Origin: Candidatus Magasanikiibacteriota bacterium
Lineage (GTDB): Bacteria; Patescibacteriota; Patescibacteriia; Magasanikbacterales; UBA922
DNA: 48,512 nucleotides
Direction of reading: 5' to 3'
NCBI GenBank assembly: GCA_031973355.1
Contig: DALYDF010000001.1
Coordinates: 20,341 to 68,852, forward strand
Within the stretch, counting starts at the first letter, position 1; the number at the start of each line of letters is the position of its first letter. Below are positions 19,958-20,039 of the stretch, in pieces. The translations under genes and the position numbers were made by a program. The notes beneath the pieces are model-generated. The model was not told the origin of the DNA. It did not search any database and saw only the letters and a list, made by a program, of their open reading frames with translations.

Positions 19958-20039
19958 AAAAAGAAAACCCCTAACGAATTAGGAGTTTTCAGTTGGGGTT
20001 GAACCCAAGCTCTTAGGATACCCAAGAGGATTACCATCT
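19958..20039 (-). ncRNA. Candidate small RNA (~80 nt) defined by a consensus promoter and an intrinsic terminator
   Basis: The predicted transcript is AGAUGGUAAUCCUCUUGGGUAUCCUAAGAGCUUGGGUUCAACCCCAACUGAAAACUCCUAAUUCGUUAGGGGUUUUCUUUUUU. Internal hairpins are CUCUU/AAGAG and UUGGG-UUCAAC-CCCAA (T-arm-like). The terminator is ACUCCUAA-UUCG-UUAGGGGU plus a U-run. The overlapping 64-aa ORF (19843-20037) has no SD and runs through the terminator. Confidence 0.5.

Follow-up and report, generated by a model that had tools for sequence, protein, structure and literature searches.

Two short RNA genes lie side by side on the minus strand of a 48,512-nucleotide (nt) stretch of Candidatus Magasanikiibacteriota DNA (GenBank assembly GCA_031973355.1, contig DALYDF010000001.1, positions 20,341 to 68,852), here called the window and numbered from its first letter. 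One of them, at 20118-20191, encodes an RNA shaped like a transfer RNA (tRNA) with the identity marks of an alanine acceptor. The other, a small RNA (sRNA) gene of about 83 nt at 19957-20039, carries at its promoter-proximal end a perfect 12-nt complement to the first. A sequence-only reading of the window had proposed that this sRNA is a dedicated antisense partner of the tRNA mimic, and comparison with homologous loci in related genomes strongly bears the proposal out: the two RNAs covary as partners and are very probably a cognate antisense pair. As judged from its boundaries and its pairing, the unit at 19957-20039 is probably a small-RNA gene in its own right, predicted to be transcribed independently and to act in trans as the private partner of the adjoining tRNA-like RNA.

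The boundaries of the sRNA gene are well marked. Its promoter (20046-20074, minus strand) is the textbook one that had been claimed, with TTGACA at 20074-20069, a 17-nt spacer, and TATAAT at 20051-20046, which together match the consensus at 12 of 12 positions; virtually every homologous locus has this promoter layout ahead of its seed. The claimed UUCG-capped hairpin and U-run are also present at the far end (19957-19990), as an intrinsic terminator with a 12-bp stem (19990-19963) and six uridines (19962-19957). Given a spacing of 7-8 nt after the -10 box, transcription likely starts at A20039 or G20038, and the pairing seed (GAUGGUAAUCCU, 20027-20038) therefore begins at RNA nucleotide 1-2, rather than occupying nucleotides 3-14 or so as first supposed. 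After the seed come hairpin 1 (20028-20010), hairpin 2 (20008-19993), and the terminator, and the RNA alone folds at -29.2 kcal/mol (z = -3.2 relative to shuffled sequence). Hairpin 2 does resemble a T arm, as the sequence-only reading had remarked, but only three of the compared sRNAs have such a hairpin, and it is not a feature of the family.

Neither RNA appears to encode a protein. The sRNA unit had been thought to leave no room for a credible coding sequence; an open reading frame (ORF) of 64 codons (19843-20037) does in fact open within the seed, but it lacks a Shine-Dalgarno sequence, continues across the terminator, and has no counterpart in relatives, where many homologous seeds read UGAUAA. 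No conserved ORF was found in the sRNA or in the tRNA-like RNA, and thus nothing that would correspond to the toxic small-protein mRNA targeted in type I toxin-antitoxin systems. A known RNA family, which might have supplied a simpler explanation, does not emerge either: among the Rfam 15 covariance models none explains, or reaches its gathering threshold on, either RNA, the best match to the sRNA being ncr1575 at 25.7 bits (threshold 60).

The partner RNA (74 nt) was delimited with covariance models. It forms a cloverleaf with G1-C72, G2-C71, and G3:U70 at the end of the acceptor, A73, an encoded CCA, and a canonical T loop; the D stem of 4-5 bp closes on a short UGG(Y) loop of 3-4 nt, and the anticodon-type stem is long. 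Its leader (20192-20217, minus strand) contains GGUGG (20201-20197) and a putative extended -10 element, TGT-TACAGT (20217-20209), from which we infer a promoter of its own, while a terminator-like hairpin downstream (20081-20112, minus strand) parts the two transcription units. In most loci a GGUGG precedes G1 by 5-7 nt, which places it at the beginning of the tRNA-like transcript or close to it. The window copy scores 79.2 bits with model R1 and 68.4 bits with model R2 of a covariance model that was made from four homologues, rebuilt from 46, and only roughly calibrated; members of the family reach at least about 60 bits and the closest true tRNAs (tRNA-Glu) about 50 bits, which separates the two.

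How constant is this architecture? Across 43 distinct sequences of the tRNA-like family, 96% of cloverleaf pairs are formed, and doubly changed pairs occupy 190 cells. G3:U70 is present in 42 of the 43, A73 is invariant, and the CCA is usually encoded. G8-C65 can form in 42 of 42 sequences, and none of them has a G just 5' of the T stem; the acceptor/T branch is therefore 8/4, with a T stem of 4 bp, and a 7/5 branch is impossible. The family has an anticodon-type stem of 7 bp, an 8-nt loop with the consensus N-UU-RYC-A-N, and a variable region of 3-5 nt. The tetraloop helix originally described in place of the anticodon arm is therefore a property of the window copy—the only one whose target stem closes to a tetraloop—and not of the family. 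With its 8/4 branch and 8-nt loop the RNA departs from the 7/5 branch and 7-nt anticodon loop of canonical tRNAs. ARAGORN and the Rfam tRNA model made no call at 20118-20191, Rfam finding only three ordinary tRNAs in the window. Some relatives (L010/L040, L087) are called by ARAGORN as tRNA-Gly(acc) or as a tRNA with the four-base anticodon tgtc, and some of these mimics probably figure as odd tRNAs in public annotations.

Does the complementarity between the two RNAs exceed what chance would produce? Read as its reverse complement, the plus-strand sequence at 20027-20038 (AGGATTACCATC) matches 20154-20165 exactly, as the sequence-only reading had stated, and neither the rest of the window nor the rest of the 923-kb genome contains the 12-mer. 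Its extent had been underestimated. A repeat search lengthens the arms to 20016-20038 and 20154-20176 (23 nt, 83% Watson-Crick), and 22 of the 23 positions pair once G-U pairs are counted, so that around the perfect core nucleotides 1-23 of the sRNA, the segment used for cofolding, cover the loop, the 5' strand of the anticodon-like stem, and the 3' strand of the D stem. Two candidate extra targets of the seeds in the genome, both matches on contig C17 inside coding sequence with neither promoter nor terminator, were dismissed as chance. The window pair taken by itself could be a chance inverted repeat, or the dead remnant of a local inverted duplication, with no RNA-RNA function: in 48 kb, one 12-nt inverted repeat spanning about 130 nt or less would be no great rarity (a rough estimate gives about 0.6 expected).

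The homologous loci refute such an origin. Next to 60 distinct Patescibacteria tRNA-like genes there is a promoter/terminator-bounded sRNA gene, 30-200 nt away and on the same strand, in which the complement, at virtually every locus a perfect match of 9-18 nt against the loop and the 5' strand of its stem, starts about 7 nt past a TTGACA-17-TATAAT promoter and is followed by a hairpin and a terminator; in all loci the sRNA 5' end, just past the consensus promoter, is precisely where the pairing ends. The longest exact complement ranges from 7 to 18 nt over the 60 sequences (median 12) and averages 12.4 nt between cognate partners as against 7.1 nt between non-cognate ones (43 loci). In a 19-column intermolecular alignment of 56 pairs, 83.7% of cells are paired between cognates and 63.5% after shuffling, doubly changed cells number 274 and 89, respectively, and the covariation score is 0.616 as against 0.235, with slid controls at 0.17 or below; none of 500 shuffles was as high as the observed covariation values. 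The UGRYAA core of the seed is conserved, and the informative columns are the variable ones, namely the first and last bases of the loop, its R and Y positions, and the stem. With pairing that covaries over 56-60 independent loci, that always sits at the promoter-defined 5' end, and that recurs with compensated changes in a second cassette of the same genome, we give an accidental or defunct repeat practically no credence.

The arrangement, initially seen as an unusual one-off, is a widespread cassette of about 270-360 bp. The sRNA gene usually lies upstream (51 of the 60 loci) and is downstream in the other 9, which include the window and its genus-mates. Because the pairing is independent of gene order, the sRNA is expected to act in trans, and a co-transcriptional cis structure is argued against. 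The family had to be collected with covariance models and a complement scan, since BLAST-type DNA searches of relatives recovered the 3' half of the tRNA-like RNA and never the sRNA. An sRNA-only covariance model (29 sRNAs) gave 37 strong matches in the 107 genomes of the host's family, and 33 of these lie directly beside an intact tRNA-like match. The window sRNA is a three-hairpin variant, which belongs to the group by its layout and cognate pairing and has no recognisable sequence homology to it beyond the seed.

Energy calculations agree with the alignment. Dimer formation averages -11.8 kcal/mol for cognate partners and -2.9 kcal/mol for non-cognate ones, and a cofold of the window copies gives a gain of -10.0 kcal/mol, in line with the proposed pairing; in the predicted window dimer the acceptor, D, and anticodon arms are open and only the T arm persists. 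In many loci hairpin 1 also mirrors the D arm, so that the antisense match of the sRNA there takes in most of the tRNA-like RNA's 5' half. These structures suggest a simple sequence of events, in which the single-stranded 5' end of the sRNA would nucleate on the exposed 8-nt anticodon-like loop, the helix would zip along the 5' strand of the stem and into the D arm (over the 22 of 23 nt in the window copy), and the tRNA-like RNA, its loop masked and the 5' half of its cloverleaf unfolded, would be switched off. On balance, we favour an sRNA that neutralises the mimic.

Duplex formation might alternatively serve processing, with a helix of 20-plus bp directing RNase III to cut the tRNA-like RNA into stable functional halves. 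The window copy, with its 22/23-nt duplex, would suit such a guide, RNase III is encoded within the window itself (47809-48201), and Hfq has no match in the genome—the sRNA does not have the profile of an Hfq-dependent regulator, its seeds being long and perfect. Many cognate duplexes, however, contain only 9-13 contiguous pairs, short for RNase III. We regard a processing guide as a very improbable account of the pair, though cleavage by RNase III would be compatible with neutralisation as the route of inactivation.

The alanine marks raise the question of a relation to transfer-messenger RNA (tmRNA). In a two-piece version of tmRNA-like rescue, the charged mimic would be the tRNA-like domain and the paired sRNA the template; G3:U70, A73, and CCA are indeed those of tmRNA, the intermolecular helix occupies the position of tmRNA helix P2, and the D region is UUCGAC-like. 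Yet the genome encodes a canonical tmRNA (105 bits, 24-residue tag) on another contig, the sRNAs have no conserved reading frame or stop codon that could make them mRNA-like, and a full anticodon-type arm fills the place of SmpB. The Rfam tmRNA and permuted-tmRNA models match the tRNA-like RNA over the 15-nt T loop only (13.3 and 10.9 bits, threshold 47). We rejected this explanation, which a normal tmRNA and the lack of a tag frame leave with hardly any likelihood. A recent derivation of the tRNA-like RNA from the genome's own tmRNA was likewise rejected, as the two sequences are unrelated.

The same genome (G000) holds further copies. In a second cassette (G000:C2:23300-23500, L086 400-600), the tRNA-like RNA lies at C2:23416-23491 (minus strand), and the sRNA follows downstream with its own TTGACA-17-TATAAT promoter; the loop ACGAUUACCAAC pairs with the seed GUUGGUAAUCGU, and this pair differs from that of the window by two compensated changes. 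Both copies have a mismatch at acceptor position 7:66, A-A in the second cassette and U-U in the window. A third cassette (G000:C9:7751-7975) has decayed: its sRNA, with the seed AAUGACAAGUC, is intact and scores 60 bits with the sRNA model, while the tRNA-like remnant has lost its 5' part and keeps only the T arm, the CCA-bearing 3' acceptor, and a loop-like CUUACCAU. The C9 seed no longer matches this remnant. Relatives provide three more cases in which an intact sRNA stands beside a tRNA-like gene that has been cut to an acceptor minihelix or is gone. Overall, four intact sRNAs adjoin a decayed or missing tRNA-like gene, and no intact tRNA-like gene without an sRNA was found in the family set.

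At two loci, L254 (G091:C1, about 250.2-250.4 kb) and L255 (G032:C41, about 8.6-8.9 kb), the tRNA-like gene consists of an acceptor stem plus one GC-rich hairpin. Both keep G3:U70, the 3' tail, and an intact adjoining sRNA, and L255 also keeps the promoter and the GGUGG leader. These remnants could be decay products or chargeable minihelix variants.

This pattern of loss bears on which partner acts on which. With the polarity reversed, the tRNA-like RNA would serve as a sponge or decoy for an sRNA that is itself the active regulator or poison, aimed for instance at the anticodon loops of tRNA-Gly or tRNA-Asp or at mRNAs. Sponges for sRNAs derived from tRNA transcripts are known, for instance the 3' external transcribed spacer (3'ETS) of leuZ, and our own alignment shows that the conserved UGRYAA could pair over 5-6 nt with the loops of tRNA-Gly(GCC) and tRNA-Asp(GUC). 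But the 12-nt target is unique in the genome, whereas pairing with real tRNAs reaches only about 6 bp; G3:U70, A73, CCA, the T loop, and G18G19 are all conserved though a sponge would not need them; and the orphans are sRNAs rather than tRNA-like genes, the opposite of what a harmful sRNA would lead one to expect. We therefore hold the reversed polarity to be quite unlikely, less so than a processing guide.

How widespread is the cassette, and does it move? It was found in about 25 of the 107 genomes of the host's family and in 4 of 7 genomes of the genus, frequencies that are lower bounds because the whole-genome searches of more than 40 genomes used stricter filters. One genome carries eight cassettes, the seeds of which do not cross-match. 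An even sample of the phylum (401 genomes) contained 5 genomes with matches of at least 60 bits, some of them in other families and with clear partners. Named records are confined to Magasanikbacteria, Uhrbacteria, Paceibacter, and unclassified Patescibacteria. Several metagenome-assembled genome records titled "uncultured Gammaproteobacteria bacterium" (e.g., CAZFKS010000002.1, CAYXGV010000012.1, and CAZKAD010000008.1) also carry the cassette, and their Gammaproteobacteria labels are apparently wrong. No protein accompanies it: when 135 neighbouring ORFs were clustered, the groups proved to be either housekeeping genes or spurious ORFs that overlie the RNA genes, with no conserved protein neighbour.

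The window itself retains what appears to be the trace of an insertion. The orthologous smc site has no cassette in five genomes of the same genus (protein search). The closest relative, G004, whose SMC protein is 91% identical, lacks the cassette, and its smc gene ends in AAAAAAGTGTAGAATAA. An identical 17-mer lies in the window at 19919-19935 (minus strand), about 360 bp beyond the present smc stop, as a relic of the ancestral 3' end of smc that marks the downstream edge of a cassette insertion of about 360 bp; the cassette therefore sits between the new and the old end of smc. It appears to have inserted into the end of the gene and to have supplied new last codons, QKVVE* in place of QKSVE* (window 20298-20320). 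Such a duplicated smc end is seen in the window only, and exact direct repeats flanking cassettes, which would indicate a general target-site duplication, were not found beyond chance. Between the cassette and lysA there is also a 73-codon ORF (19671-19892, minus strand) with 60% G+C and a Shine-Dalgarno sequence; in G004 the corresponding place, directly behind smc, is taken by a different mini-gene, likewise GC-rich. Taken together, the two genes form a protein-free cassette, gained and lost by the genomes of the ultra-small Patescibacteria (CPR) and diversifying into pairs that are orthogonal to one another.

What would such a cassette do in its host? A match to alanyl-tRNA synthetase (AlaRS) is present in the genome (G000:C7:6505-7926). 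The AlaRS frame is only 645 residues long, the match spans model positions 1-436 of 552, and the enzyme may be a shortened form. Because tRNA-Gly (GCC, UCC, and CCC) and tRNA-Asp (GUC) are already encoded in the genome, the mimic fills no decoding gap.

A beneficial role is nonetheless conceivable, in which the mimic is a physiological alanine donor, for example to Fem-type peptidoglycan transferases, or a recoding or frameshift tRNA, and the sRNA tunes its availability, perhaps by cell cycle. Strict conservation of the AlaRS identity marks would fit this role, and so would the FemAB-family genes present in 106 of the 107 genomes of the host's family, with 2-7 matches each and one in the window (46096-46413, minus strand). 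Their number is high for genomes of about 1 Mb. An exact DnaA-box 9-mer (TTATCCACA, in either orientation) stands just upstream of the -35 element of the sRNA promoter in related loci, at positions -47 to -54 relative to the 5' end of the sRNA. It is exact in 7 of 41 loci (e.g., L039, L048, L049, L057, L058, L061, and L072) and has at most one mismatch in 11 of 41; exact boxes number 0 in the flanking 108 kb, and there is none in the window. Against a physiological role, the universal Fem genes and the cassette, which only about one-quarter of genomes carry, show no signal of co-occurrence. From a housekeeping donor one would expect a single copy at a syntenic position, whereas copy number and location vary, up to eight orthogonal copies share a genome, presence and absence alternate cleanly between close relatives, and some copies have decayed. 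We judge regulation of a useful RNA unlikely, though the least unlikely of the rivals to neutralisation.

Neutralisation of the mimic by the sRNA thus remains our preferred account. We infer that the sRNA is an antidote, which would restrain a potentially harmful, putatively alanine-charged mimic whose non-alanine loop would read GAY/GGY codons or be prone to frameshifting. An antidote is argued for by the patchy distribution, by orthogonal pairs present in several copies, by a gene order that in most loci puts the antitoxin first, by promoters that look strong and constitutive, by the absence of a decoding need, and by decay that always spares the sRNA. Adjacent RNA genes of which one is a base-pairing antitoxin RNA are also the layout of RNA-only (type VIII-like) modules, and we tentatively suggest that the cassette is a toxin-antitoxin-like module made of RNA alone. 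More speculatively still, it may be an all-RNA addiction or immunity module: once the short-lived antisense decayed, the alanine-charged mimic would read Asp/Gly (GAY/GGY) or four-base codons and corrupt or frameshift translation, so that cells would be held hostage, or phage-infected cells shut down, without any protein.

Several observations weigh against these interpretations. The alignment behind the covariation values was anchored on the complement, which inflates the conserved core but not the contrast between cognate and shuffled pairs. The window sRNA scores only 9.6 bits (E = 0.74) with the sRNA model R3, which represents the main architecture, and is not recognised by it as a member. 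The conserved GGUGG of the leader is complementary to CCACC at the 3' end of the tRNA-like RNA, and pairing between them could block charging unless RNase P removes the leader; such an "outer clamp" could keep the CCA hidden until then. The anticodon arm is unusual and, with its 7-bp stem and 8-nt loop, may lack competence on the ribosome altogether. The asymmetry of decay comes from only four cases. The DnaA-box-like sites before about one-quarter of the sRNA promoters hint at physiological regulation rather than pure addiction. Finally, the cassettes lie among housekeeping genes, not in defence islands, and viral contigs yielded no family member, the best score there being 44 bits, from ordinary tRNAs.

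Should the mimic be charged and enter the ribosome, the cassette would amount to a gated device, of natural origin, for mistranslation or frameshifting, or to the first toxin-antitoxin pair in which a tRNA is the toxin, and it occurs in minimal-genome bacteria that otherwise shed accessory genes. Its orthogonal seed/loop pairs would also provide ready-made programmable RNA-RNA switches on tRNA bodies. For annotation, the consequence is that genes for the mimic are either misannotated as odd tRNAs (Gly-ACC, four-base anticodons) or missed, neither RNA having an Rfam model. Full-text literature searches found no description of the cassette, of the pairing, or of a tRNA-mimic toxin, and no report of an aminoacylatable-looking, tRNA-shaped RNA with its own sequence-addressed antisense switch.

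How does the cassette compare with known systems? Antisense control is familiar for mRNAs and replication primers, and in CopA/CopT, ColE1 RNA I/RNA II, and hok/Sok-type type I systems it proceeds by kissing between a loop and a single strand. The cassette would share with these systems a short, strongly promoted RNA whose free seed nucleates on the cognate hairpin loop, extends the helix, and inactivates the target, as well as side-by-side partners that diversify into orthogonal pairs. It differs in that its target is a tRNA-shaped, apparently alanine-chargeable RNA instead of an mRNA or replication primer, in that it encodes no protein, and in that its genes do not overlap, the sRNA being trans-encoded with an extended perfect seed. 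Closer in kind are the type VIII modules, in which both toxin and antitoxin are RNA, as in SdsR/RyeA and CreT/CreA. Here, too, both partners are RNA, the protective RNA would act by base pairing, and the modules are small, accessory, and patchy; unlike them, the cassette has as its putative toxin a tRNA mimic that would act through charging or decoding, and neither Cas proteins nor Hfq take part. We know of no RNA-RNA toxin-antitoxin pair with a tRNA-type toxin.

The tRNA-like RNA also has structural relatives. With the tRNA-like domain of tmRNA it shares the alanine set of G3:U70, A73, and CCA, the canonical T loop, and a reduced D loop, but it possesses a complete anticodon-type arm and lacks both an mRNA-like domain and a tag frame. 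The allo-tRNAs (Mukai et al., PMC5389517) have a 12-bp 8/4 branch and a long variable arm, some with G3:U70 being charged by AlaRS; they are reported to be accessory and associated with toxin-antitoxin or mobile contexts, and that paper does not mention antisense. The mimic resembles them in its 8/4 branch, in the combination of G3:U70 with a non-alanine anticodon, and in its accessory distribution. In contrast to the allo-tRNAs, it has neither the long variable arm nor serine identity, its anticodon-type stem of 7 bp carries an 8-nt loop, and it is confined to Patescibacteria, where it comes with a private antisense sRNA.

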